Positions 1-12,160 of a DNA stretch of 12,160 nucleotides are shown here, in pieces (position 1 is the stretch's first letter; each line of letters begins with the position of its first letter). A program made the position numbers and the translations under genes. The stretch is from a virus (taxonomy: Duplodnaviria; Heunggongvirae; Uroviricota; Caudoviricetes). A model generated the notes under the pieces. It was not told the origin of the DNA and did no database searches. It was given only the letters and a program-made list of their open reading frames with translations. Location: the IMG/VR virus record IMGVR_UViG_2609459803_000002, positions 1 to 12,160 of that record, one strand, 5' to 3'.

Positions 1-123
1 TGCAAATTCATTATAAACATCATCACTGACAGCCAGAGCATCATCTGGCCATGAATTTGCATTAATGTAATCATCCTTAAGTGCAGGATTCACAAAAATG
101 TTTAAAGATGGACTATAAAACAT
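1..123 (-). CDS. Tail fiber assembly protein (Tfa-like chaperone), N-terminal 41 codons only; gene runs off the window start
   Basis: ATG at 123..121 sits one nt after the tail fiber stop. Own translation MFYSPSLNIFVNPALKDDYINANSWPDDALAVSDDVYNEFA carries the WP.DA..VS..Y.EF N-terminal signature recalled for enterobacterial tail fiber assembly proteins. Absent from the ORF track because it is partial. Confidence 0.5.
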   Translation of the reverse strand, partial: MFYSPSLNIFVNPALKDDYINANSWPDDALAVSDDVYNEFA

Positions 124-124
124 A

Positions 125-763
125 TTACACCCCTATAGCGATATAACGACCTAATACAGCGTTTGCAGCAGTCGCTATGCTTGAAAAACCGCGGAACTGA
201 TTTGATGTAATTGCAGAAGCCGACAGGATTCCTGCGCCTGAAGGTGTATGCCCCACATGACTAACTATCATTCCATAACATGCTGACGGAAAGGCAAAAG
301 GAAAATCGTTAAGATATCCGGCATCTTCACCACCAGACCCACCAAATCTCGCCTGCCCCCACTGAATAATCAGTGTTCTCCGGGAACCTGAAATAATTAA
401 CGGGATCGTTACATACCCATTCAGGCCAATGACACCAGATGCAGTGCCAGCCAGAGATAATTCTCCCAAACCAAGGTTTTCGAGAGCCGTTTTCACGGTG
501 CCATCCGATTTGATATCGCCAAACGGATTCTTGCGGCTTAACAGCAGCGCACGAAGCGCGGTAAGCAGCTGGTCGTGTTGCGCCTTCTCCAGACTAGCAC
601 CGGATGCCTCCACCACGCTGCAAAGCTCCTCCTGCAACATGTCAAAGTAGTCATCATCCAGATCGGTAGCAGGCGTGCCAGTCTGGGGGTTACCACGGGT
701 AAAACCGTTTTTACCCGCGCCGAACTTATCCTTCTGCGCGGTTTTCGTGTCTATACGATGCAT
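125..763 (-). CDS. Phage tail fiber protein, short (212 aa)
   Basis: ORF-track protein ([22 protein letters not shown]...) with Gly/Ser-rich C-terminal half, GGAG ribosome-binding site 6 nt upstream of the ATG, and a tightly coupled tfa-like gene immediately downstream. Family assignment is by context and recall, not by search. Confidence 0.55.
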
Positions 764-1574
764 GGATTACTCCGGATACCGAACCGTTGAGCATCTCGAT
801 AACTTCCCGCCGCTTGTCGTAGCACGGCCCCTCAATGTTGTACCCGGCGGTGGTGATGGCCCACATCAGTGGCTGACGTCGCGCGCCCATCCCGGTAAGC
901 ATCGTGGTATAAAGCGCATCGGTGGCGTGCTCGTGATATTCATCCACCACGGCACAGTGGGGTGATGAACCATCACCGGGGTTACCGATCAGCGGTTCAA
1001 ACCGCGCGCCATCCTCCGGACGGTTCATGTTTGAGGCGTTAACCTCAATCCCGAACGCTTCCGTCAGCATGGGTGTGCGTTTACACATCAGTCGCGCCGG
1101 GCGAAAGACTTCCCACGCCTGTTTCTCTGTCGTGGCACCGGAATACACTTCCGCGCCAAACTCGTTATCACAGGCAAAACAATACAGGGCAACACCGGCA
1201 GAGATTGCCGATTTGCCGTTCTTACGGGGGATTTCGGTATACACCTCCCTGAAGCGGCGCAGCCGGGAGCCTTTATTGACCCAGCCAAACGCACAGCAGA
1301 TCACAAAGAGCTGCCACGGTTCCAGCGTGATGGGCATCCTCTTGAATGCCCACTCCCCCTTGGTGTGTGGCAACAGCTGAATAAATTTCGCGGCCCGTTC
1401 AGCCAGGTCCTTGTCGAAGCGGTAACGAAACGACTTACTTTTTTCCGCCATCAGGTCATCAAGATGGCGCTGGCAGGCCTGAATCACAAACTGGCAGGCC
1501 ACAATCTTTCCGCGCACGACATCACGGGCATACTGATTGGCAGCATTTACGTTGGGGTAAGATTTCCGGCTCAT
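726..1574 (-). pseudogene. Large terminase subunit, N-terminal ATPase domain only (3'-truncated remnant of a roughly 550-aa HK97-type protein)
   Basis: Walker A-like IPRKNGKS and Walker B-like CAVVDEYHE motifs are present. The ORF stops at 282 aa, shortly after the ITTAG motif, with no nuclease domain in any frame; the next gene is the tail fiber. Start overlaps the TerS stop, as is typical. Confidence 0.75.
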
Positions 1575-2065
1575 GATTCGATGATTTTCAGAAACGGGTT
1601 AGTGGCTTTCTTCTGCCCCGCCAGGCCAATCAGACGCTGGCGGCTGCTGGGGTCGAGTCCGAGCATTGCCCCCGTGCTGCTCATCTCGGACTCCTGTTCT
1701 TTCTTGGCGGTCAGCTCCGGATTTTTGACCATGCCACCCATTGCACCGGTGATGGTGTTGCCCTGTCTGGCAATATTTTTCACGGCACGCCGCCAGAACT
1801 CGTAGGCCACGCACCACCGCTCAAGCACCGCGAGGTCAGTCACGCACAGCAGGCCCTGACCGCAGAGTTCTTTGGTTGTCAGTTGCCACATGATCGTGGC
1901 GAGAGGGAGATCTTCTTCAGCGAACCACTCCGGTGGCTCAACACCTTTGATGGGCGTAAAAACAGGTTCATCTTTATTCAGGGCTCGCTTGCCGGGGTTT
2001 CCGGCCAGCGCCTTGCGCGCCGTTGGCTTGGGGCGACGCCCGGACCCCCCCGCCGTTCCAGCCAT
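1571..2065 (-). CDS. Small terminase subunit, P27 family
   Basis: N-terminus [30 protein letters not shown] matches the recalled P27-family signature. Start chosen at ATG 2065..2063 (AGGAG 8 nt upstream) rather than the GTG at 2074 used by the ORF track. Confidence 0.8.
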
Positions 2066-2104
2066 ATGCGGCACTCCTGGTTAAATTTCATTTTTCGCGG
2101 GTAT

Positions 2105-2164
2105 AAAAAAACGATGGGGCGGGCAGTCCGGAAGACGTCAGGTCACAGGGATGTGACCCGCCCC
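2105..2164 (-). other. GC-rich nested inverted repeat between HNH and TerS: candidate cos/packaging site or intrinsic terminator
   Basis: GGGGCGGG (2116-2123) pairs with CCCGCCCC (2157-2164) and encloses the hairpin GTCACA-ggga-TGTGAC (2142-2157). A run of 7 A (2105-2111) gives a U-tract on the minus strand after the structure. Confidence 0.3.
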
Positions 2165-2190
2165 TCCCCTCAGACAGTTGAGAGTTATTA

Positions 2191-2541
2191 TCACTTTAAC
2201 CGTTCACGGACCGTCTTCGCCTTATGACACGGCCAACACAGACTCTGCAGATTACAGTCGGCATCAGTGCCGCCATGCGCTTTAGGGATGATGTGGTCAA
2301 CGGTTTTCGCCTCACGCACCACACCGGCACGCAGACATAACTGACATAAACCTTTGTCACGCTTCAGCACACGCGCGCGGATAGCGTCCCACTTCGAACC
2401 ATAACCGCGCTGATGACGGGACTGACCTGGCTTGTATTGCTTCCAGCCTTCGCTTTTGTGGCTTTCGCAGTAGCCTGACGGGTCTGTGGTTGTAGAGCGG
2501 CAGCCGCGAACACGGCAGGCTTTTGGGGTTCGTGGTGGCAT
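2191..2541 (-). CDS. HNH endonuclease (phage packaging-associated)
   Basis: Cys/His pattern CQLC...VDHIIP...GG...NLQSLCWPCH typical of HNH; GGAG ribosome-binding site 7 nt upstream of ATG 2541; located directly upstream of TerS as in HK97-like phages. Confidence 0.85.
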   Translation of the reverse strand: MPPRTPKACRVRGCRSTTTDPSGYCESHKSEGWKQYKPGQSRHQRGYGSKWDAIRARVLKRDKGLCQLCLRAGVVREAKTVDHIIPKAHGGTDADCNLQSLCWPCHKAKTVRERLK

Positions 2542-2559
2542 TGGTAAGCTCCAATAAAA

Positions 2560-2585
2560 AAGCCACCATCGATTGCTAGTGGCTT
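2560..2585 (-). terminator. Terminator-like hairpin downstream of the orphan gene
   Basis: AAGCCAC (2560-2566) pairs with GTGGCTT (2579-2585) around a 12-nt loop; on the minus strand the stem is followed by a U-run. The stem is short, so strength is uncertain. Confidence 0.3.
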
Positions 2586-2611
2586 AGCATCTACTAATGT
2601 GAAGAGTAGGT

Positions 2612-3370
2612 TTATTTTTTCTTCTTATTTAACTTATCTAAATTGACGGGATCTTTCCCTGTGGCAGCTAAACACCAAAAAGAATAACTCTTTTGCATGA
2701 CATAGGTTCTAATTCTCTCTAATGTTTCATTATATTTTTTCTCAACAACCTGTATCGCATGTTCAAATAAATTAATCATATCAACATGCTCGTCCTCGAC
2801 ACCAATCATGCTCAGTTGTTTTCTATCTGTCACTGCTTGATAAAATGTTTTCCCATTTTTCCTTATTAGTAACAATGAAGTTTCTGCTGACTCATAGTCT
2901 TGGTTGCCGCTATGTGCTGCAAAATTATGCCTGTAGTTAATAATACAGTCATGCAACCCAAAATATTCAGAATCAAGCCAATCACGCTCCATCTTTAACT
3001 TTCTCCCTTTAGCTTCAGAGAAAGCTTTACCATAAAACGTTAGGCTTGCCACAAATAACGCTCTAATTTCACTTGATAAATCTAGATCAAGTATATTCCC
3101 GTATAACTTGCCATCTGTCCTTAATTCGTTTCTCCCTGCCAGTTCATTAGCTATTTGGTACCACTCTTTAGCACTTTTTAAGTCCCTATGAATTAGTGAC
3201 AGTGAAGATGCTCTATCGGCAATACGCCCACTCAATTTTATGCGATCTACAATTTCATTATTGAATGTATAAACCGCTTTAAATTCCCCCGTTTCGGAAT
3301 CAATATAATATTCAACATCTAACCCTTCATATGATTCACACCCGGGACCTTCTAATTTTTTTCTTTTCAT
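2612..3370 (-). CDS. Hypothetical cytoplasmic protein (252 aa), AT-rich cargo gene with an Rx5H motif (possible HEPN-like abortive-infection or toxin protein)
   Basis: Long clean ORF in a visibly AT-richer stretch. Start taken at ATG 3370..3368 (M9 of the ORF-track protein, whose first codon is TTG). Motif YRHNFAAH lies within an otherwise unassignable sequence; no signal peptide or membrane segment is evident. Confidence 0.6.
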   Translation of the reverse strand: MKRKKLEGPGCESYEGLDVEYYIDSETGEFKAVYTFNNEIVDRIKLSGRIADRASSLSLIHRDLKSAKEWYQIANELAGRNELRTDGKLYGNILDLDLSSEIRALFVASLTFYGKAFSEAKGRKLKMERDWLDSEYFGLHDCIINYRHNFAAHSGNQDYESAETSLLLIRKNGKTFYQAVTDRKQLSMIGVEDEHVDMINLFEHAIQVVEKKYNETLERIRTYVMQKSYSFWCLAATGKDPVNLDKLNKKKK

Positions 3371-3451
3371 ATAGAATATCCATATACGTTTCAATTCTCA
3401 GTCAGCATAGTAGAAAAAAAAGATGTCCAGATCCATACATCGAAAGCAATT

Positions 3452-3916
3452 TTAGTTTTCACACTGACTAGAGATATAGTCCTGCAATGCTCTTATCTGT
3501 TTATAACTGATTTCAATTCTCTCTCTGAGGGTGAAATAATCCCGTTGAGCGGTGTCAGTAAGTCGGGGGGCGGTAGCATCATCCAGGCTGGTGGTAATGG
3601 TCGTTGATTGCACTCTCGGGCAACTAGCGGCGAGGAACAGCCGCTTAGTGCCAACAGCAACATCACGCTGAAGCTGTTCAATAGTTGCTTTAGCATTTGC
3701 AAGTTCTCCGGTGTATTTCGCATCGAGCGCAGAAACATCACGCTGGCGCTGCTGCATCTCAGTAATGGTGGCGTTCGCCTGGCTGAGTTTTTCCTTCGCT
3801 TTATCGCGCTGTTCTTTGTAGGCGATGGCGTTATCACGATAATGATTAACAGCCCATGATAGGCAGACGATGGTGCAGATAACCAGAGAGGACAGAATCG
3901 CAGTTACTCTACTCAT
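3452..3916 (-). CDS. Rz: Rz inner-membrane spanin
   Basis: From the internal start [31 protein letters not shown] the protein closely matches recalled lambda Rz (N-terminal membrane segment, coiled-coil body). ATG at 3916..3914 overlaps the endolysin stop. Confidence 0.85.
3493..3696 (-). CDS. Rz1: Rz1 outer-membrane lipoprotein spanin, embedded in the +1 frame of Rz
   Basis: Internal start gives [22 protein letters not shown]... with lipobox LSGC, then the proline-rich [27 protein letters not shown], closely matching recalled lambda Rz1. Confidence 0.75.
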
Positions 3917-4391
3917 ATAGCTGAATTTCTCTGACCGTTCCGCCCGATTCTTTGAATTTTTCAATCAGGCTGTCAACCTTATGTTCGAACTGACCATAAC
4001 CAGCGCCCGGCAATGACGCCCAGATATTGCTGCAACGATCAATAGCCTGACGGATATCGCCGCGATCAATCATCGGTAAAGCACCACGCTCTTTAATCTG
4101 CTGCAATGCCACAGCATCCTGGCTTTTTGGAGAGAAGTCTTTCAGCCCAAGCTGCTTACGGTAAGCATCCCACCAGCGTGAAAGAAGCTGATAACGTCCT
4201 GCGGCTGTTGATTTAAGTTTCGGGTTTAGCGTGACAAGTTTGCGAGGGTGATCGGAGTAATCAGTGAACAGTTCACCTCCGACAATAACGTCATAACCGT
4301 GGTTACGTGTCGGTTGTCGCCCGTTATCCGTTCCTTCTGACCATGCCACCATATCGAGGAAAGCTTTACGCTGGGAATTTAGTACCTGCAT
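3909..4391 (-). CDS. R: Endolysin, lambda R-type lytic transglycosylase
   Basis: [61 protein letters not shown]... is near-identical over most of its length to recalled lambda R. Confidence 0.9.
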
Positions 4392-4394
4392 AAA

Positions 4395-4721
4395 TTACTC
4401 CTTAGAGCCACCAAACTTATTACCGATTACTCTCATTGCAGCCCCACGAATAGCATCGACCCCGATCAGCCCAACGCCGCCACCAATGGCAACAGAAAGA
4501 GATTTAGGCCATCCGACATACTCAAGAGCGGATGCAAAAGTCAGCGTCAGAGCACCACAGAGCAAAATCTCGAGCGTTTTTCGTTTCCAGCCACCACCAC
4601 CGCCAAAATAGGCAATGCGCAAGCCAGCCATAACGATCGACATAATCACTGCGCCCAGCGGTGTGTCTCCACGCCACCAGCTCTGGACCAACTCCAGCCA
4701 GGTATTTGGGTTATGAGGCAT
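4395..4721 (-). CDS. Holin, lambda S-like (three-membrane-segment class I)
   Basis: Sits immediately upstream of the endolysin. Hydrophobic segments and motifs (MAGLRIAYFGGGG; GVDAIRGAAMRVIGNKFGG) line up with lambda S features (MAYLRGRYNGG; GTDSIGSLIKRFAAKKAG). Exact start not resolved. Confidence 0.7.
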   Translation of the reverse strand: MPHNPNTWLELVQSWWRGDTPLGAVIMSIVMAGLRIAYFGGGGGWKRKTLEILLCGALTLTFASALEYVGWPKSLSVAIGGGVGLIGVDAIRGAAMRVIGNKFGGSKE

Positions 4722-4963
4722 TTGTAGTTATCTCTCACCTCGCCGATACAGGAGGTGCAAATTGAGGGAGTACCACGAACCGCAAACCAGAAGCGGAAAC
4801 GTAAAAGAAGCCGAGCCAATGGATAAGTGCTAGATAGACCAAGCCCAACGAATACCAAGGCCCAGAAATGACAAAACCCGCTCGACGGCAGGTTTAAGCT
4901 GTGTGGCGAAGTAACCACTCTTAACAGATTACACGATAAAATGCGGACCGCGTGAGGAAAACT

Positions 4964-5056
4964 ATGGTTTTTTTGAAGCGAATGAGTAAAATCAACGCCA
5001 CTTTGCACATAAGTTATCCACACTGTACGTTTGCAAAATCTCATTGCTCTCTTTGA
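4964..5056 (+). CDS. Small ORF (30 aa, MVFLKRMSKINATLHISYPHCTFAKSHCSL) upstream of the peptidase gene; candidate leader peptide or small protein
   Basis: GAGGA ribosome-binding site 5 nt upstream of ATG 4964; below the ORF-track size cut-off. No family signature. Confidence 0.2.
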   Translation: MVFLKRMSKINATLHISYPHCTFAKSHCSL

Positions 5057-5175
5057 GTTTTGTAAATGCGCTAATTTTTGGACTTTTTTTGCCGATAGAA
5101 TCTAACCACTTGTGTGGTAAGTTCTGAATGAATGTTACCTCTTGGTTTGAAAATTCTTAACATAAGGACATCTGA

Positions 5176-6171
5176 ATGTTTGAGCAGCGTAAAGCCCTGT
5201 ATGCGCAACTGGAACAAGCACGCAATTCAAAAGTATTATGCTATGTAACAGGTGATAGACCAAACCAAGAAGCTCAAATCAGCGCTGATGTATTCGATCT
5301 GTTCGTCAATCATCTTGATGTGATAGGTGATGTTCAAAAAATTAGCCTCGTGCTCTATACGCGAGGCGGCGACACTTTAACAGCATGGAGCCTTGTAAAC
5401 CTGCTTCGTCAGTTTTGTAAAGAACTCGAAATCATAATCCCATCAAAATGCCATAGTTCTGGGACGATAATGTGCCTTGGCGCGAACAACTTGGTTATGA
5501 CCAAGCAGGCAACCTTAGGGCCAATCGATCCAAGTGTGAATACACCACTTAACCCTTCGGCCATAATCAATGGGCAGCCACTTCAACTTCCAGTCAGTGT
5601 TGAAGAAATCAATGGCTATCTTGAAGTAGTTAAGCATGATTTGAGTATCAAAGATGATGCCTCACTTGCACAGATCCTCCTTGCATTAAGTGAAAAGGTT
5701 CATCCCTTGGTACTTGGAAAAGTCTATCGAGCTAAAGCGCAGATTCAAATGCTCGCAAGAAAACTACTGTCTCACCAACTCACTGATAGTGAAAGCATTG
5801 AGAAAATTGTAAGTTTCCTTTGTAGTGATTCTGGTAGCCATGACTACACTATAAATAGGATTGAAGCGGTAAACGATTTAGGTCTTACGGTGGAAAAACC
5901 AGATGAGCACCTTTACGGTCTGATCAAAGAAATTTATGAAGATTTCAAAACTGAGATGCATCTGGGTGAACCTTTTGACCCAAATGCTATCTTAGGAACA
6001 GTTAACCAGGCATCGTACGTATCTGTCAGAAGCATTTTAGAGGCTCCAGACACGTTTTCATATCAATTCCGCACTGAGGGGATGTTACAGCGTTTTCAAG
6101 TTCCAGGCGTCCCAGGTCAGTTCGGCATAAATCATAACCTTATCTCAGAGGGGTGGGCTCGACATGGATAA
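5176..6171 (+). CDS. ClpP/crotonase-fold serine peptidase (SppA / S49 / SDH-proteinase-like), cargo gene
   Basis: AAGGA ribosome-binding site 7 nt upstream of ATG 5176. Segment LVLYTRGGDTLTAWSLVNLL ... IIIPSKCHSSGTIMCLGANNLVMTKQATLGPIDP matches the GG ... (A/S)SxGT ... TLG.I core of ClpP/SppA-fold peptidases. Opposite strand to and AT-richer than the flanking phage genes. Confidence 0.7.
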   Translation: MFEQRKALYAQLEQARNSKVLCYVTGDRPNQEAQISADVFDLFVNHLDVIGDVQKISLVLYTRGGDTLTAWSLVNLLRQFCKELEIIIPSKCHSSGTIMCLGANNLVMTKQATLGPIDPSVNTPLNPSAIINGQPLQLPVSVEEINGYLEVVKHDLSIKDDASLAQILLALSEKVHPLVLGKVYRAKAQIQMLARKLLSHQLTDSESIEKIVSFLCSDSGSHDYTINRIEAVNDLGLTVEKPDEHLYGLIKEIYEDFKTEMHLGEPFDPNAILGTVNQASYVSVRSILEAPDTFSYQFRTEGMLQRFQVPGVPGQFGINHNLISEGWARHG

Positions 6172-6343
6172 CAAATCATCTACAGGTAACTTTGTAGTCT
6201 ATACTAACAGGCATACAACTACAGCTGCGCCTAAGCCAGCAAGCATTCCATCCACTGCTCAAAAAACAAGCAACAATGGCGTCAATGGCTACAGTAACTT
6301 TTTAAGTTGCACCACAGGTTCAGTCATAAAAAACAGTTTCTAA
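6164..6343 (+). CDS. Small S/T/N-rich ORF (59 aa), translationally coupled to the peptidase gene
   Basis: ATG 6164 overlaps the peptidase stop in an ATGGATAA arrangement, with GGTGGG upstream. Own translation MDNKSSTGNFVVYTNRHTTTAAPKPASIPSTAQKTSNNGVNGYSNFLSCTTGSVIKNSF; stop at 6341-6343 lies directly before the terminator hairpin. Could be spurious given its low complexity. Confidence 0.3.
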   Translation: MDNKSSTGNFVVYTNRHTTTAAPKPASIPSTAQKTSNNGVNGYSNFLSCTTGSVIKNSF

Positions 6344-6344
6344 A

Positions 6345-6371
6345 AACAACGGCTCTCTAAGAGCCGTTGTT
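6345..6371. terminator. Bidirectional intrinsic terminator hairpin between the convergent Q and peptidase operons
   Basis: Perfect stem ACAACGGCTC (6346-6355) / GAGCCGTTGT (6361-6370), extendable by one A-T pair, with loop TCTAA. Followed by a U-run on the minus strand and a weaker U-rich tract on the plus strand. Confidence 0.5.
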
Positions 6372-6375
6372 GTAT

Positions 6376-6738
6376 CTATTCACATTCTAAACGTATATCG
6401 AGCATACTAAGGCAACCATCGATAAATCCCTCAGCCATCTGTATCTCAATGCGTATTAGTTTCTCATCCTTTTTACTAGCCTTGGCGAGCTTTCTTTTAG
6501 AGATACCGTATAGGTAATGGGCAACAAGAAGCGAATGTTCGTCCGGCCTTTTTTGCTTTAGACGAGCAAGACAACCTTCAATAATTAATGCATCACTATC
6601 TGAACAAGCCTGACGTGTTTTACTTGTATAGGGAAGAAGCCCTTTAAACCCAGCAGCTATAGGCGAATAATCTACTCCAGAACTATCACTCGCCGCCCAT
6701 GCTCCCCAACGCTCCAGAACCATCTGAATATCACGCAT
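6376..6738 (-). CDS. Late-gene antiterminator Q (phage 82 / QuuD-like family)
   Basis: N-terminus MRDIQMVLERWGAWAA and C-terminus GFIDGCLSMLDIRLE match the recalled QuuD-type signature. Start taken at ATG 6738 (GGAG 7 nt upstream) rather than the TTG at 6753. Position between the nin-like genes and the lysis cassette fits. Confidence 0.8.
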   Translation of the reverse strand: MRDIQMVLERWGAWAASDSSGVDYSPIAAGFKGLLPYTSKTRQACSDSDALIIEGCLARLKQKRPDEHSLLVAHYLYGISKRKLAKASKKDEKLIRIEIQMAEGFIDGCLSMLDIRLECE

Positions 6739-6755
6739 CAACTTTCTCCACAAAA

Positions 6756-7751
6756 TCAGGCCAGCACACCAATCGCCAGCGCACGATCGATAAAACGAAA
6801 TATCAGCTCCAGCTGGGAGCCATACTTCTCTTCAAATGCCACGGTATCCGCATGCAGCTCGTCGTGATGCTTTCTGCACAAAGGCAACACAAAAAGGTCA
6901 TGCGCTTTTGTACCCATTCCACCCTGACCGTGGCCTATCAGGTGGTGGGGATCATCAGCGGGCTTTCCACAACATGCACACGGCTGCGTCTTAACCCAGC
7001 GCGTGTACTTTTCATTAACCCAGCGGCGACGTTTTGGGCGTAACATAAAAGACTCCGGCGACTCCGGCTCCACTTTCAGCGCCAGCACCTTTTTCGCTTT
7101 ATCCTGGATGATGCTGGTGGCAGGAACCGAAGGAACAAGATCACTTTCCCGGGTGACAGACGGCACAACAGGCTTCGGTAATCTCAGTGCCTTACGGGCT
7201 GCACTTTCCGGTAAGGCATCCGCCAGGTCATTACGAACCAGCCACCAGCACAGTTCCGGCATTGTCACAACGTGACTGTCATCAAAACCGAGATCCCGAC
7301 GCACGACAGACAACACCCAGCTGGCACAGTTATCCGTTGCCATTGATTCCAGCCGTTCCGTGAACTGATCGCGCAGCTGGTTATCGCAGTGCCAGCACAG
7401 ACGGATTGCGCCCGGAGCGTGTCGCATTGTGGTCATGTTCTCGCTGTGCCAGTCGGAATGAGGCCACTGGCAGCCTTTTTCACGAAGTAACCAGCTTTCA
7501 AGACATTCCACGCCACCAGCACGACGGATCACCGCCTCATTGCGGAACACAGCCCGAACGGCAGGATCATCCGCCAGTGGTTGTAATGCCGCCGGAACGG
7601 CACCACTGGAAAAAGATGAATAATGTTCCGGCTCAGGCTCCAGCAGGACACGCCCCTGCATAAACAGGGGCATCAGCTCTGAACCGGGTCTGAACAATAC
7701 GATCCCCATACGCGGGGCAATTTCAGGGGTCAGTAGCGCTCTCACGGTCAC
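6756..7751 (-). CDS. DUF968/YdfU-like prophage protein with a C-terminal HNH-like Cys/His cluster
   Basis: C-terminal CACCGKPADDPHHLIGHGQGGMGTKAHDLFVLPLCRKHHDELH; family name is from recall and unverified. GTG start abuts the KilA-N stop; exact start uncertain. Confidence 0.6.
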   Translation of the reverse strand: MTVRALLTPEIAPRMGIVLFRPGSELMPLFMQGRVLLEPEPEHYSSFSSGAVPAALQPLADDPAVRAVFRNEAVIRRAGGVECLESWLLREKGCQWPHSDWHSENMTTMRHAPGAIRLCWHCDNQLRDQFTERLESMATDNCASWVLSVVRRDLGFDDSHVVTMPELCWWLVRNDLADALPESAARKALRLPKPVVPSVTRESDLVPSVPATSIIQDKAKKVLALKVEPESPESFMLRPKRRRWVNEKYTRWVKTQPCACCGKPADDPHHLIGHGQGGMGTKAHDLFVLPLCRKHHDELHADTVAFEEKYGSQLELIFRFIDRALAIGVLA

Positions 7752-7752
7752 C

Positions 7753-8556
7753 TCAATGAACGGTATCGAGCAGCTTTAACAGCTCAGGGAATCGGGATTC
7801 GAAGAAATGCGGCTGCGTCTCACGCGGATTTGCAGGACTGGTGATGTTCTTGCCGAACATGCAGCCTTTCGCCGTCAGCGACCAGAATTTTTTAATGTTG
7901 TTAATTGCGGTACGGCTGTATCGTTCGCGTTGTTCAACGATCCCCAGCTTCGCCATCTGGTGATATGCCTGATTAGCCGTCAGGCGGATACCATACTGCT
8001 TCAGCAGTGCACTCAGCGCCAGCGTCGGGCGGCTTGAGCCATCAGGCGCGTCAGCAGGAGCATCAATGGCATAGCGCGGTGCCAGATTCGGTAAGCCAAC
8101 AGCCTCCTGGAGTTTCTGACAGGCACCAAGCACAGATGAGTTAGACAGGTTTAACTCCCGACGCATAAAGTCCAGCAGAATCACACCAGCCTGCATCTTG
8201 TCAGCAGCCTGCCCGGATAATTTTTCCGGTGCGCTGGTTACCATATCGAAAGTACGGATCACCTTCAGATGGAATGACGGGCTGATCCACATTGCATAGG
8301 CATACACCAGTTCTTTGCAGACATACGTCCCCTGGTTATTTCCGCCACGAATAACGTTAACTGGCTCTATATTGACATTGACCGAGTTGCAAATCTGCAA
8401 CTCGCTTATTAAACGTTCAGTTTGCTCATTGCGGAGCCAGAATGCAGGCTTATGCTTATCCAGAGAACCGGCAGCCCTGTGCAGATCGTTCAGGCTGTAA
8501 CGACCATAAGCATCACGACGAACTTCAATACCATCAATGACCATCAGATTATTCAT
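7753..8556 (-). CDS. KilA-N domain protein (antirepressor-like)
   Basis: N-terminal MNNLMVIDGIEVRRDAYGRYSLNDLHRAAG...KHKPAFWLRNEQTERLISEL resembles the KilA-N DNA-binding domain. Start at ATG 8556 with GAGGAG 9 nt upstream (the ORF track starts at an upstream GTG). Confidence 0.7.
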   Translation of the reverse strand: MNNLMVIDGIEVRRDAYGRYSLNDLHRAAGSLDKHKPAFWLRNEQTERLISELQICNSVNVNIEPVNVIRGGNNQGTYVCKELVYAYAMWISPSFHLKVIRTFDMVTSAPEKLSGQAADKMQAGVILLDFMRRELNLSNSSVLGACQKLQEAVGLPNLAPRYAIDAPADAPDGSSRPTLALSALLKQYGIRLTANQAYHQMAKLGIVEQRERYSRTAINNIKKFWSLTAKGCMFGKNITSPANPRETQPHFFESRFPELLKLLDTVH

Positions 8557-8575
8557 ACTTCGTTTCTCCTCTTGA

Positions 8576-8875
8576 TCAGGCGGCTGCACCCGCCGTTTTC
8601 TCGTACTTACTGATAGTGATCTCGACCTTCCCTTCCGGGATAACCGGTCCCCACTCCACCAGCATTCTTTTCACCTGACTGTCGTCTTCCCACACACCCG
8701 CGTGGGTCAGGGCGTCAAACAGCGCCTTGTTATAGTTGTCCAGATCGCGGATCCGGTTACAGGAAGCGCAATCAGTTGCGAGCGACGGTAGTGTGTTGTT
8801 AAACTGTTCATGCGTTAGTTTCTCCACAGTCACGACACGCCACGGCGCCCGGAGCTGCACACTCGCGGGCGTCAT
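8576..8875 (-). CDS. rusA: RusA-like Holliday junction resolvase
   Basis: RIRDLDNYNKALFDALTHAGVWEDDSQV matches the RusA catalytic-aspartate region (RRDLDN...FDAL...DD). Start taken at the first in-frame ATG (8875); this gives a shorter N-terminus than recalled RusA and overlaps the upstream gene by 68 nt. Confidence 0.6.
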   Translation of the reverse strand: MTPASVQLRAPWRVVTVEKLTHEQFNNTLPSLATDCASCNRIRDLDNYNKALFDALTHAGVWEDDSQVKRMLVEWGPVIPEGKVEITISKYEKTAGAAA

Positions 8876-9404
8876 TACTTTCTGAAATGCAAAAGATTTT
8901 GTAGACCAGTGCTGCATGCTCCTGCAGCTTCGAAATTGAGAGATACAGCTCGTCGTTAATTGCTGTCTTCTCATGCGGTTCCACCACACCGTCTTCGATT
9001 GCCGAACGAATCTGTCTGGAATAACTGCCAATCTGTTCAATGACTTCCAGCAGGCGCTGGTTAATATCGGCGTTGTCCACATCCTCGACGTCAGGAAGAG
9101 ACACAAAGACGCCATTTGCAGACTGCGCCACAGCGTCAGCAATGAAGTGAGTTCCACCAGCACGTTGCAAAATCATTGCCCATCCCAGCGGGAAAATCTG
9201 ATCGCCATCGGCACGAAGGCGGTTAAATAATGCGTTTTCTGTTACATCCAGCCAGTCAGCTGCTTCAGCGTAACCACCCGGCAACGCTGCGATAGTTTTT
9301 CTGACAGCTTTCACGTACCACTCAGGCTGTTTTTCTACTTTCCAGTGATGCTTACCCACGGTTAGCCTCATCGTTCTGTGGTTTCTGTTAATCGATTTAT
9401 CCAT
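8808..9404 (-). CDS. CII-like regulatory protein (phage 186 CII / e14 YmfL type)
   Basis: Central segment YAEAADWLDVTENALFNRLRADGDQIFPLGWAMILQRAGG parallels the helix-turn-helix region recalled for phage 186 CII. Lies directly after cro. Start is ambiguous (ATGs at 9416, 9404, 9371); 9404 overlaps the cro stop as ATGGATAA. Confidence 0.5.
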   Translation of the reverse strand: MDKSINRNHRTMRLTVGKHHWKVEKQPEWYVKAVRKTIAALPGGYAEAADWLDVTENALFNRLRADGDQIFPLGWAMILQRAGGTHFIADAVAQSANGVFVSLPDVEDVDNADINQRLLEVIEQIGSYSRQIRSAIEDGVVEPHEKTAINDELYLSISKLQEHAALVYKIFCISESNDARECAAPGAVACRDCGETNA

Positions 9405-9597
9405 TAGATTTTTCATAAAGCTCAGGTTTAAATGGCAACCGTCCGCAAGTTCTATATGCAGCTTCTGCTGCACGTCCTTTTGGAATTAACTGGCCCGGAC
9501 GGTTTCGCCACTGATAAACGGCTTCAGTTGTTATGCCGAAAAAAGCAGCAACTTTCTCAATACTGCCGAAGTAGCTTTCGATATCGTCAGTTGTCAT
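9397..9597 (-). CDS. Cro-like small helix-turn-helix regulator
   Basis: 66 aa, divergent from the repressor across a 97-bp operator region; GGAGG ribosome-binding site; sequence VAAFFGITTEAVYQWRN is consistent with a helix-turn-helix. Confidence 0.6.
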   Translation of the reverse strand: MTTDDIESYFGSIEKVAAFFGITTEAVYQWRNRPGQLIPKGRAAEAAYRTCGRLPFKPELYEKSNG

Positions 9598-9694
9598 ACG
9601 CCCTCCAAACTAAGTTTTATTAGATGCTAATTACAAATCTATCTTTGGTCAATAAAAACTAAGATTACTTAGCAATTCAAGAAATGGTGCTCCT
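9598..9694. promoter_or_regulatory. Divergent promoter/operator region of the immunity switch
   Basis: Minus-strand promoter candidate TTGACC (9652..9647) -17 nt- TAGCAT (9629..9624) for cro. Operator-like palindromes CTAAG-ATTA-CTTAG (9659-9672) and CTAAG-TTTT-ATTAG (9610-9623) flank it. Confidence 0.5.
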
Positions 9695-10321
9695 ATGGAA
9701 ACGGTTGGTCAGCGTATAAAAGCTCTGAGAAGAGTTACCGGAACGTCCCAGAAAGAATTGGGTAAATTTTGTGGAGTAAGCGACGTTGCTGTGGGGTACT
9801 GGGAGAAAGACATCAATACCCCTGGTGGGGAGGCACTTTCGAAATTAGCGAAGTTCTTCAATACGTCAATAGATTACATTCTTTATGGTGCTGAGTTTGA
9901 AGGCAAACTCGTCACAAACATGCGCAGAGTTCCTGTAATATCGTGGGTTCAGGCTGGGCAGTTTACTGAGTGCAGGGCAGCAGAAGTGTTTAGTGAAGTG
10001 GACAAGTGGGTAGATACATCATTAAAGATTGGTGATAACTCATTTGCATTAGAGGTTAAAGGTGACTCCATGACTAACCCTAATGGCCTCCCAACAATAC
10101 CAGAAGGCGCAACAGTGATTGTAGATCCAGATGCAGAACCTCGTCATGGAAAAATAGTCATCGCTCGACTTGATGGAACAAACGAAGCTACAGTAAAAAA
10201 ATTAGTCATCGATGGCCCTCAAAAGTTTTTAGTGCCATTAAATCCTCGGTATCCCAACATCCCTATCAATGGTAATTGCCTTATCATTGGTGTAGTCAAA
10301 GGAGTTCAATACGAACTCTAA
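9695..10321 (+). CDS. cI-like prophage repressor (N-terminal helix-turn-helix plus C-terminal LexA-like S24 autopeptidase domain)
   Basis: N-terminal QKELGKFCGVSDVAVGYWE helix-turn-helix; Ala-Gly cleavage site in VQAGQF; catalytic Ser in KGDSM and Lys in TVKKL. Confidence 0.9.
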   Translation: METVGQRIKALRRVTGTSQKELGKFCGVSDVAVGYWEKDINTPGGEALSKLAKFFNTSIDYILYGAEFEGKLVTNMRRVPVISWVQAGQFTECRAAEVFSEVDKWVDTSLKIGDNSFALEVKGDSMTNPNGLPTIPEGATVIVDPDAEPRHGKIVIARLDGTNEATVKKLVIDGPQKFLVPLNPRYPNIPINGNCLIIGVVKGVQYEL

Positions 10322-10343
10322 GACCTCTCTTCTCTAACTAAGG

Positions 10344-10376
10344 CACCGAACTAAGAAAAGTTTGGTGTTTTCTCTT
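10344..10376 (+). terminator. Intrinsic terminator downstream of the repressor gene
   Basis: CACCGAACT (10344-10352) pairs with AGTTTGGTG (10359-10367), 9 bp including one G-U, loop AAGAAA, followed by TTTTCTCTT. Confidence 0.5.
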
Positions 10377-10403
10377 GCCATAATAACTAAGTTAAGTTAG
10401 ATT
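10375..10403 (+). promoter_or_regulatory. Sigma70-like promoter candidate with overlapping operator-like palindrome
   Basis: TTGCCA (10375-10380) -17 nt- TAGATT (10398-10403). CTAAG-TTAA-GTTAG (10386-10399) sits in the spacer and resembles the operator motif next to cro. Confidence 0.3.
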
Positions 10404-10527
10404 TTATATCAAAGATAACGAACAGGCAGGACGCCCACGAAGTAGCCGCCTGGGGAATATGAAGTCCAGGATGATTCGTTGAGTCATGTTGTGCCACCAG
10501 GCACTCATGTTAAAGCAGGTGTATGAA

Positions 10528-10803
10528 ATGAAAGTCCAGATTTTAAACAATAACTGTGAAGTCGTTTGGTCATACGACATAGCCGCCCCTGTAGATCAGA
10601 GCGGCGATAGCTGGACCAATGGGAAACATCAGATTATGGCTGGAGTTGTGTTCTCTTTACGCCGTGCTTTGGAACAGGCTGAAGTATTTCCATCAGACCC
10701 TGAATGGAAATGGCCTTTTTCTATTTGTCCAAATTCGGAGAGCACATTTCAGAAAATTGGTCAGAAAGTCGCACTCGAAGAGCATCAGCCAACTGTTTCC
10801 TGA
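10528..10803 (+). CDS. Hypothetical protein (91 aa), first gene outward from the repressor's far side
   Basis: Start at ATG 10528 with AGGTG 8 nt upstream (the ORF track starts at 10486). Not arginine-rich, so not an obvious N-like antiterminator. 3' end overlaps the convergent minus-strand ORF. Confidence 0.4.
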   Translation: MKVQILNNNCEVVWSYDIAAPVDQSGDSWTNGKHQIMAGVVFSLRRALEQAEVFPSDPEWKWPFSICPNSESTFQKIGQKVALEEHQPTVS

Positions 10804-10966
10804 TTTTTTCAGGTAACTCGTCGGCATCGCAGAAACAACAACGCTCGATCATGTTGAAAGCCGATTCGTAGAACTGTTTCTGCTGAGTGTCGCTGAGACA
10901 GGAAAAGAGCGACGTTACGATGATTTTATTAATTGCATTATCAAGTTCTTTTTCATCAAAAGTCAT
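10721..10966 (-). CDS. Hypothetical small protein (81 aa, Cys-containing CCFCDADE segment)
   Basis: AAGGA ribosome-binding site 8 nt upstream of ATG 10966; plausible charged, helical composition; convergent with and overlapping the 3' end of the 10528-10803 ORF by 83 nt. Confidence 0.5.
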   Translation of the reverse strand: MTFDEKELDNAINKIIVTSLFSCLSDTQQKQFYESAFNMIERCCFCDADELPEKIRKQLADALRVRLSDQFSEMCSPNLDK

Positions 10967-11220
10967 TTGATTTTCCTTTTATGTATACGGGCTTAAAAGG
11001 ATACCACCGAGCCTGAAGTGGTGAAAAGACAGGCACATAACAGCTAAGTATTTTCAACCAGAGAGAATCCTTAGCGTTGTGGTGAATGCGGCTCAGCGCA
11101 CGCGGGTTAAGGTTGAGGCTGACAGTCGACCTTCTGTAGATACCCACCCGCCTGGTGTGCAACCTTCGCCAGGCACCGGGAGGCACCCGGCACCACAACT
11201 TTATGCTGTGTGTAGTCCTG

Positions 11221-11267
11221 GCGGTACCAGTTTGTACCCTTGCTTCCGGCTGGTACCGCTCTTTTTA
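11221..11267 (+). terminator. Terminator-like hairpin inside the GC-rich noncoding island
   Basis: GCGGTACCAG (11221-11230) pairs with CTGGTACCGC (11250-11259) around a 19-nt loop, followed by TCTTTTT. Confidence 0.35.
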
Positions 11268-11403
11268 CAAAACAGAGAAGAGCATCACCGGACGACGGGC
11301 TCATAAACCAATCCATCCGGGCGGCTGCCACCGCAGGTGTTCTTCTCTGTTTTGTGGAGAAACTAATCGGCCTTGCAGGGTCGATATGATGAGGAGCAGC
11401 AAA

Positions 11404-11766
11404 ATGGCTAGCGAACGCAGTACTGATGTGCAGGCATTTATCGGGGAGCTGGACGGCGGCGTATTTGAAACCAAAATCGGCGCAGTTCTCAGTGAAGTCG
11501 CTTCCGGTGTGATGAACACGAAAACCAAAGGTAAGGTCTCACTCAACCTGGAAATCGAACCATTTGATGAGAACCGTGTGAAAATCAAACACAAACTCTC
11601 ATATGTTCGCCCGACTAACCGCGGGAAAATTTCCGAAGAAGACACCACCGAAACGCCGATGTATGTCAATCGCGGTGGTCGCCTGACTATTCTGCAGGAA
11701 GACCAGGGACAGTTACTGACTCTTGCCGGTGAACCTGACGGAAAACTCCGCGCAGCAGGTCATTAA
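11404..11766 (+). CDS. Conserved prophage protein of unknown function (120 aa; possibly YfdP-like)
   Basis: Start at ATG 11404 with GAGGAG 7 nt upstream; the ORF-track extension upstream of this is GC-rich junk-like sequence. YfdP resemblance rests on recalled size and neighbour only. Confidence 0.6.
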   Translation: MASERSTDVQAFIGELDGGVFETKIGAVLSEVASGVMNTKTKGKVSLNLEIEPFDENRVKIKHKLSYVRPTNRGKISEEDTTETPMYVNRGGRLTILQEDQGQLLTLAGEPDGKLRAAGH

Positions 11767-11831
11767 TATCGTTCTTAATTAACTGATTATTTATCTCATC
11801 ACTGAATATCTTTATATAGTGAGGACTTATT

Positions 11832-12160
11832 ATGTCTCAGAACTTAGACGCAACCGCAATTAATCAAATCCATGCCCTTATTTCTGCTCAGAGTGTTAAT
11901 GAAATTATCAGTAAGATTGGTGCCGATGCTGTGGCATTGCCTGAGAATTTCCGCATTCATGATCTGGAAAAATTTAATTTAAATCGCTTCCGTTTCCGTG
12001 GTGCGCTTTCCACTGCCAGCATCGATGACTTTACCCGTTATTCTAAAGATCTTGCAGATGAAGGCACCCGCTGCTTTATCGATGCTGATAATATGCGTGC
12101 CGTCAGTGTGCTTAACCTGGGTACTATTGATGAACCAGGTCACGCAGATAACACCGCCAC
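11832..12160 (+). CDS. Conserved prophage protein of unknown function, N-terminal part (possibly YfdQ/DUF2303-like); runs off the window end
   Basis: ATG 11832 with GAGGA 6 nt upstream. Own translation [110 protein letters not shown] has no stop within the window. Not in the ORF track because it is partial. Confidence 0.6.

Follow-up and report, generated by a model that had tools for sequence, protein, structure and literature searches.

The stretch analysed here comprises 12,160 nucleotides of the IMG/VR virus record IMGVR_UViG_2609459803_000002 (positions 1 to 12,160; hereafter, the window) and, judging from its sequence, is part of a defective temperate Escherichia coli prophage of the e14/SfV type, an element whose architecture joins an HK97-type head module and a Mu-type contractile tail to lambdoid regulation. 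Its best overall relative is the FREC5 prophage of E. coli (NZ_CP180702, locus L001), which is 97.8% identical over 81% of the window, and the phages SfV, SfI and SfII share 97–99% DNA identity with the window over terS–terL. A preliminary description of this DNA had assigned it to the e14-like or HK97-like phages, in agreement with these identities and with a layout that matches e14 of strain K-12. In FREC5, the genes for an HNH endonuclease, TerS, a 577-amino-acid (aa) TerL, YmfR, portal, HK97 protease, capsid, connectors, sheath and tube are followed by those for the tape measure, a DNA-circularisation protein, baseplate proteins, GP46, baseplate J, YmfQ and StfP. The window and FREC5 agree in gene order to either side of the junction described below, and the blocks that align (window 774–4952, 6409–8759 and 8753–12160, plus 462–778 across the gap) are each 95–99% identical to, and collinear with, this complete prophage.

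At the locus, three consecutive open reading frames (ORFs) on the minus strand match PF01844 (HNH), PF05119 (TerS) and PF03354 (TerL) in Pfam, and the HNH–terS–terL region as a whole is 99.3% identical to FREC5. By ORF length, Pfam and the FREC5 annotation, the terminase-associated HNH endonuclease (2191–2541, 116 aa) and the small terminase of the P27 family (1571–2065, 164 aa) are intact. The third ORF (726–1574) is chimeric, its 282 residues consisting of TerL residues 1–266 and 16 foreign ones; unambiguous terL sequence, codons 1–266, occupies 779–1574 and is 99.3% identical to FREC5 terL. The TerL ATPase domain (PF03354) covers residues 86–256 of the product and profile positions 1–174 of 178 (E 7e-27), the Walker A and B motifs are visible, ITTAG lies at residues 240–244, and no Pfam match to the nuclease domain PF20441 was obtained in the stub. 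Residues 267–577 of the intact protein are deleted, so that the gene is cut just after its ATPase domain, at residue 266 of 577, much as the preliminary description had read it from the ORF length and the motifs.

BLAST and base-by-base comparison equate window 774–2600 with L001 19998–21824 and window 462–778 with L001 4138–4454, which places the junction at 777/778, within the interval (726–800) originally proposed. In FREC5, the terL side of the junction reads ...TTCGGTA/CCCAAC, a GGTACC site (slashes mark the joining point throughout), and the ymfQ side reads ...TTTAAATA/TCCGGAG. On the coding strand the parents are ...AACGGTTCGGTA/CCCAACGAT in terL and ...TTTTTAAATA/TCCGGAGTAATCCATG at the ymfQ end and stf start, and the window reads ...AACGGTTCGGTA TCCGGAGTAATCCATG. 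The dinucleotide TA at 777–778 is common to both parents, the homology being exact over these 2 nt and extending to four of five positions over GGATA/GGGTA; the base-level alignment contains no insertion sequence, att site or longer repeat at this point. The alignment thus indicates a single illegitimate deletion that joined terL codon 266 to the end of ymfQ on TA microhomology only. Relative to FREC5, 15,548 bp and about 21 genes are missing, namely the TerL nuclease domain, portal, protease, capsid, connectors, sheath, tube, tape measure, baseplate and all of ymfQ except 12 nt. The absence of the nuclease domain and of the portal, protease, capsid and tail genes had been noticed at the outset, as had its consequence: with every head and tail gene between terL and the fibre gone together with the nuclease function, neither virion formation nor packaging is possible.

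The tail fibre gene does come next and does have a GGAG upstream, as first described, but the partner of the join is the ymfQ remnant and not the fibre ORF. The last 12 nt of ymfQ (TAT CCG GAG TAA, minus strand, 767–778), the first two of which are the shared junction bases, lie 15 nt upstream of the stf start codon, and the segment 764–776 comprises the rest of them and a 3-nt spacer. The GGAG (770–773) belongs to this ymfQ end, beside the stop codon TAA (767–769), 6 nt upstream of the stf ATG (761–763), and serves as the ribosome-binding site of stf; it lies in the region of the penultimate ymfQ codon in intact phages as well. The 16 foreign residues are the 3′ end of ymfQ and the 5′ end of stf read out of frame, the 282-aa ORF overlapping the start of the 212-aa fibre ORF (125–763).

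Recurrence of the junction and of its terL end

The junction is a real deletion and not an assembly chimera, because the same junction is found in independent assemblies. The identical 282-aa protein is encoded on nine contigs from NCBI, ENA and Logan assemblies, in varied mosaic prophage backgrounds, and two of the nine are 100% identical to the window; with an IMG/VR contig (L025) in which a pattern scan located the same DNA junction, at least 10 independent assemblies carry it. At least five haplotypes carry it, and the polymorphisms closest to it are at −25, −37 and +67. None of the complete RefSeq E. coli genomes has the window junction, and no copy of it was found among GTDB species representatives or JGI metagenomes. 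When the terL side was queried against 5,426 complete E. coli genomes, about 2,000 matched, every match ending at window 774–779. The nearest complete-genome case is LH10-b-1, whose junction retains 73 more bases of ymfQ.

The preliminary description took this breakpoint as a one-off. Instead, its terL end is recurrent. The terL fragments of LH10-b-1, PCP06173 and TW14425 have the same length but continue into other partners, namely a point in ymfQ that lies 73 bp deeper and two different points in GP46. A search of a collection of 5.8 billion protein clusters with the 282-aa query returned many TerL-ATPase fusions in which ...EMLNGSV is followed by unrelated tails, derived from the portal, capsid region, sheath, a gpP-like baseplate protein, GP46, baseplate J, the fibre, the TerL nuclease domain or foreign DNA; the database holds many deletion derivatives and no naturally short terminase of this kind, the first of the two objections raised in the preliminary description. 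All 12 junctions read at the DNA level (eight fetched fusions and four loci) end in ...TCGGTA, i.e. the break falls after GGTA in the GGTACC of TCG GTA/CCC, at codon 266. Counting the DNA junctions, two additional ones from IMG/VR, the protein tails and five more from the 90% cluster, at least 26 different partners are joined to this one terL base in other genomes. About 40 distinct terL breakpoint types were tallied, of which 15 are at codons 266/267, and smaller clusters lie at codons 178/179 (GAGGTT/AAC), 197–201 (ATCGGTAACCCCGGT) and 293–296 (GCTAACCCG). These minor clusters are situated within GGTAACC-, GGTTAAC- and GCTAACC-like sequences.

Two loci have a more complex structure. In L021 (Logan ERR1623131, 2501–4843), terL codons 21–266 run in the opposite direction to that expected from terS and HNH, the flanks contain P4-like primase and Ash genes, and the GGTA end at codon 266 is joined to foreign DNA, so that this end is seen in an inversion/insertion too, and not in deletions only. 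PCP06173 (L003, 366–7769) holds two e14-like packaging modules head to head, one with an intact terL and a truncated portal gene, the other with a terL that stops at codon 266 and runs into GP46, in a composite rearranged prophage region.

The GGTACC site of the portal gene behaves alike. It lies within codons 135–137 (GTG GTA/CCG). When proteins were searched with the N-terminal part of the portal, 47 broken fragments were obtained, of which 25 have their break at codons 136/137 and continue into at least 20 different tails (P0147–P0174); IMG/VR contributes five more portal-break loci of three types. The portal/baseplate-J junction of e14 in strain K-12 (L034), which we take to be beeE/jayE, reads GTGGTA/TATGCG and thus lies exactly at this site. 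The terL breakpoint is therefore not random, and two 6-bp sites account for about 40–50% of the different breakpoints that a collection of about 15 billion proteins shows in terL (15 of some 40 types) and in the portal gene (25 of 47 fragments). GTAC sites other than GGTACC (terL codon 244 and portal codon 158), where detection is good, show no events, and a GTAC specificity of the Csp6I type was rejected on the grounds that these sites are cold. The third GGTACC site (terL codons 399–401) is hardly assessable, given the apparent length limit of the protein list. In the literature covered, which did not include the 2004 e14 analysis paper, we found no description of a GGTACC hot spot.

An unselected survey of all loci retrieved gave only one further recurrent left end, CAGGGTA/ACCGC (GGTAACC), in the replication gene at 11368/11369 of the L001 coding strand. 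It was seen in L034–L036, L039 and L005, and is used both by the K-12 e14-type deletion to terL codon 200 and by a different 2.5-kb deletion in L005.

Origin of the recurrent end

The structure of the joints constrains what may produce this end. Of 16 partner sites with a clear position in the intact reference, 12 have TA, GTA or GGTA directly upstream of the retained base; over positions −4 to +3, partners match the terL site at 4.3 of 7 positions, as opposed to 1.8 at random downstream positions. The four partners without TA have TG (three) or CA (one), and the product still has A. This retention of A where the partner differs implies that the fixed end truly ends in GGTA. C follows GGTA in about 30% of junctions, as often as expected by chance. 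The late region has five other GGTACC sites, and no partner falls on any of them; products in which one GGTACC site is religated to another were not seen.

Considering these features, we propose that a DNA end ...GGTA-3′ may be generated repeatedly at the GGTACC sites of e14/SfV-type phages, by a sequence-specific nick, a 2-nt staggered cut or fork arrest at the site. Such an end would be blunt or have TA single-stranded, and would be joined downstream through 0–5 nt of terminal microhomology, mostly (G)(G)TA. A defective e14/SfV-type prophage, a microhomology deletion and a recurrent GGTACC end together form the best explanation overall, and we regard this account as very probable. A stronger version, for which we claim only tentative standing, is that late-gene GGTACC sites may be cut or nicked at a defined position by a so far unrecognised sequence-specific activity, and that this would be a main route by which such prophages, K-12 e14 included, shed their structural genes and are left stranded in the chromosome. 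The activity could belong to the terminase-associated HNH endonuclease or to a host nuclease that is methyl-directed or specific for GGTACC; a protein roadblock that arrests forks is a further candidate.

Several points weigh against this reading. Familiar sources of a fixed end fit poorly. KpnI cuts GGTAC^C and Acc65I cuts G^GTACC; cutting by these enzymes and religation would leave ...GGTAC, so that the retained end is wrong, and the expected site-to-site joins were not found, which excludes simple cutting and religation. A hairpin or cruciform at the terL site was rejected because the sequence folds with unremarkable energy (z −0.15 and −0.7), and resection by RecBCD up to a Chi sequence because the distance to Chi is inconsistent (100 bp for the portal site, 3.4 kb for that in terL). 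The polarity of the junctions rests on small numbers, fixed-upstream-end junctions outnumbering mirror junctions by nine loci to none in IMG/VR, and one leftward fusion does occur, at the third GGTACC site (HNH.../PYDTVYS, P0313). In metagenomes, the mirror-image pattern gave two matches, both due to chance, and a protein search with TerL 267–477 had almost no power to address polarity, at most about 58 foreign N-terminal residues being listable. The GGTGCC control is likewise small, with 31 portal alleles against at least 120 with GGTACC, and its three pattern matches are unrelated sequences. Moreover, the events are rare, 1395 of 1400 complete-genome records that match the terL site being intact across it and 5 of 1400 not, and the counts of far-downstream breakpoints are lower bounds, because the hit list of the protein search seems to stop at a length of about 1.75 times that of the query. 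Finally, it is from a recurrent end point that we infer a site-specific lesion, and its agent is putative.

An alternative explanation is that the short TerL is a functional, selected ATPase-only product, kept together with TerS and HNH so as to poison or pirate the packaging motor of related superinfecting phages, which would make the element a module that is domesticated or satellite-like. The truncation does fall at the boundary between the ATPase and nuclease domains; none of the truncated alleles examined has a stop or a frameshift in terS, HNH or the stub; the window junction is found on at least five diverged haplotypes in different mosaic prophage backgrounds; and alleles differing by 18–21 synonymous sites encode the identical 282-aa protein. 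This last pattern, however, is an artefact of exact-sequence retrieval: the cluster of the 282-aa protein contains window-type variants with one or two amino-acid changes, one of them in the foreign tail, and truncated alleles found by DNA or through other tails have private non-synonymous changes, though no stops. Selection accounts neither for end points that are precise to a single nucleotide nor for the portal case, in which the fragment has only 136 aa. In addition, the tail of the stub is different in every junction type, the stub has no defence match in PADLOC, and the element is 98–99% identical to a complete prophage and is devoid of the hallmarks of known satellites. The variation of the stub looks like that of recent, neutral scars, which neither proves nor excludes a function, and taken together we consider a selected ATPase-only product unlikely.

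The junction may, alternatively, have been made by a site-specific recombinase, the Pin invertase or the integrase, acting on pseudo-sites; a crossover over 2 bp, TA, would be in keeping with a serine recombinase. TA is indeed common to the junction and to 12 of the 16 partner sites, the terL site is near-palindromic (GTTcGGTACCcAAC), a pin gene and a genuine pix site belong to the e14/SfV phage family, and one rearrangement at the same terL end, that in L021, is an inversion. Hin, Gin and Pin sites share a known consensus, and the terL and portal sites are unlike its pix/hix half-sites, with inner bases CGG-TA-CCC as opposed to ACC-AA-GGT, the natural core dinucleotide of Pin being AA. The partner sites, moreover, have no extended consensus beyond about 7 bp, and four of the 16 do not have TA. 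Recombination of this kind is very unlikely.

It is also conceivable that there is no hot spot at all, and that one ancestral terL truncation at codon 266 was spread by recombination, with nested deletions or exchanges giving rise to the different partners. The flanks do show clear active recombination, and the window-type junction creates GGATACC, so that repeats of 5 bp would be available for deletions in a second step, GGATA for those reaching the end of ymfQ and GATAC for those reaching the ymfQ site 73 bp upstream of it. Nonetheless, this scheme needs more than 20 second-step deletions, all starting exactly at the old junction, and the partners include sites upstream of any plausible ancestor, in the terL nuclease domain at +450 bp and in the portal gene. 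The portal GGTACC site constitutes an independent and equally strong cluster, and K-12 e14 uses it while its terL fragment still has the codon-266 site intact. The GGT/GGG and T/C polymorphisms beside the junction point to junction types that are scattered among intact-phage alleles and do not form one clade. Descent from a single truncation is thus most unlikely.

The chance that the join is a chimeric assembly artefact, for which nothing speaks except its abruptness, is practically negligible, given that the nine contigs from different samples and assemblers and the IMG/VR contig share it, that related junctions exist in the closed long-read genomes of LH10-b-1, PCP06173 and TW14425, and that a false join by an assembler needs a shared k-mer where only 2 bp are common; the reservation to this effect in the preliminary description can be withdrawn.

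On the account that we favour, a microhomology deletion from a recurrent GGTACC end, the junction taken alone is a further example of a familiar class, the defective e14-type prophages, and the deletions account for the inability of the element to form particles or to replicate. The recurrence bears on prophage decay more generally, which is usually pictured as random deletion, and the GGTACC cases include a junction in the laboratory strain K-12. Should a specific nuclease or a fork barrier prove to be responsible, the stranding of temperate phages would have an assayable mechanism and a sequence rule predicting where it occurs. For annotators, fusions labelled 'terminase large subunit domain-containing protein' that consist of about 266 aa and a tail are to be read as scars, not genes.

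The rest of the remnant and its relation to known elements

A second deletion junction lies at 8753–8759, where alignment to L001 28079–30981 reveals that about 2.9 kb is missing. The deletion connects a point 54 bp downstream of ymfL with the interior of rusA, and has removed DUF4222, an HTH replication gene, PerC/yfdN, an N6-adenine methyltransferase, a LexA-like gene and the 5′ part of rusA; ORF 8576–9163 is the 3′ fragment of rusA with a foreign N-terminus. The parents read CCGGTTA/TCC and CCGGTA/CAG and share CCGGT(T)A, and this junction, too, is that of a microhomology deletion. A 9-mer, TATCCGGAG, is found at the partner breakpoints of both deletions, at window 767–775 (minus strand) and in the intact sequence adjoining window 8759 (L001 ~28080–28088); it was kept at the first deletion and deleted at the second, and the chance of a match this long at aligned breakpoints is roughly 1e-4. 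Having suffered both deletions, the remnant can neither replicate nor package. It is, in itself, an ordinary object, a doubly deleted e14/SfV-type prophage remnant, and any induced lysis of the host would presumably operate from a single, non-replicating copy.

The control and lysis modules fared better, and the initial impression that immunity, Q and lysis functions are intact is borne out: holin, endolysin, Rz, Q, the DUF968 protein, the KilA-N protein, YmfL (CII-like), Cro and the S24-peptidase repressor are all full length, with lengths equal to those in FREC5. Pfam supports this lambdoid control and lysis set except for the endolysin ORF (3909–4391), which has no Pfam match and was assigned from the FREC5 annotation. 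Between holin and Q, window 4953–6408 is replaced relative to FREC5 and carries, as cargo, a plus-strand gene for an SDH/ClpP-like serine protease (ORF 5176–6171, PF01972), which is also present in some other E. coli prophages. PADLOC returned nothing for the 282-aa stub or the cargo ORFs, 5176–6171 included, and one weak match for the KilA-N protein (PDC-S22, E 5.5e-06); Rfam and tRNA screens of the window gave no matches.

The HNH–terS intergenic region (2075–2190) contains the G/C-rich inverted repeats GGGGCGGG...CCCGCCCC and GGTCACAGGGATGTGACC. It is probably the cos region, as the GenBank records of SfV and SfIV begin within it, at window 2132. With this putative cos kept in the remnant, a helper phage could in principle package the element. 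Classification as a phage satellite (PICI, cf-PICI or P4-like) was considered and rejected: every block retained is 95–99% identical to, and collinear with, a complete prophage, the replication genes are deleted, capsid genes are absent and the stub has no PADLOC match.

At the other end of the window, the fibre gene stf (125–763, minus strand, 212 aa) is full length and contains a Gp53-like_C domain, and the 5′ part of the fibre assembly gene tfa (1–122, minus strand), assigned from sequence and from a gene order as in L002 and L005, runs off the window. A 26-bp sequence within stf, TTCTCCCAAACCAAGGTTTTCGAGAG (461–486), is presumably a pix/hix-type crossover site for the Pin invertase, an attribution we make from the Hin/Gin/Cin/Pin consensus. 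Homology to other e14-like fibres ends at 461/462, which suggests that 461–486 may mark the boundary between the constant and the invertible parts of stf, and that window 1–461 would represent one orientation or allele. The pin gene lies outside the window and is present in the relatives L002, L005 and L019.

Compared with its intact relatives, the FREC5 prophage and the Shigella phages SfV, SfI, SfII and SfIV, to which it is 97–99% identical at the nucleotide level in HNH–terS–terL, the window lacks what they all have: a full 577-aa TerL, about 21 head and tail genes (15.5 kb) and a replication segment of 2.9 kb. The closest defective counterpart is e14 of K-12, which belongs to the same phage family and whose gene order we take to be ymfK/cohE ... 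ymfN, beeE, jayE, ymfQ, stfP, tfaP, tfaE, stfE, pinE, mcrA. Its surviving genes stand in the same order as those of the window (LexA-type repressor, Cro, YmfL, terL fragment, ymfQ, gp53-like fibre, tfa and a Pin-invertible fibre segment), and it, too, has been crippled by two microhomology deletions, one of which, at portal/baseplate J, has its end after GGTA, the same type of end as in the window. The two differ in what was lost. In K-12 e14, the stretch from the replication gene to terL codon 200 is gone, including Q, lysis, HNH, terS and the N-terminus of the ATPase, whereas the window keeps Q, lysis, HNH, terS and TerL 1–266; K-12 e14 has also lost the stretch from portal codon 137 through baseplate J, whereas the window has lost ymfQ and all structural genes. 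Furthermore, e14 is integrated at icd, and the integration site of the element studied here lies outside the window.

As regards mechanism, the nearest parallel is that of the Ter-site-induced deletions in E. coli, which Bierne, Ehrlich and Michel reportedly observed at fixed replication-arrest sites. Hot spots of this type, or those caused by restriction breaks, resemble the GGTACC case in having one end fixed to the base, variable partners and 0–5 nt of homology. The GGTACC case departs from them in that the site has no Ter-like sequence and no hairpin, that the fixed end is displaced from the cuts of known GGTACC enzymes, and that its junctions come from natural populations and not from an assay.

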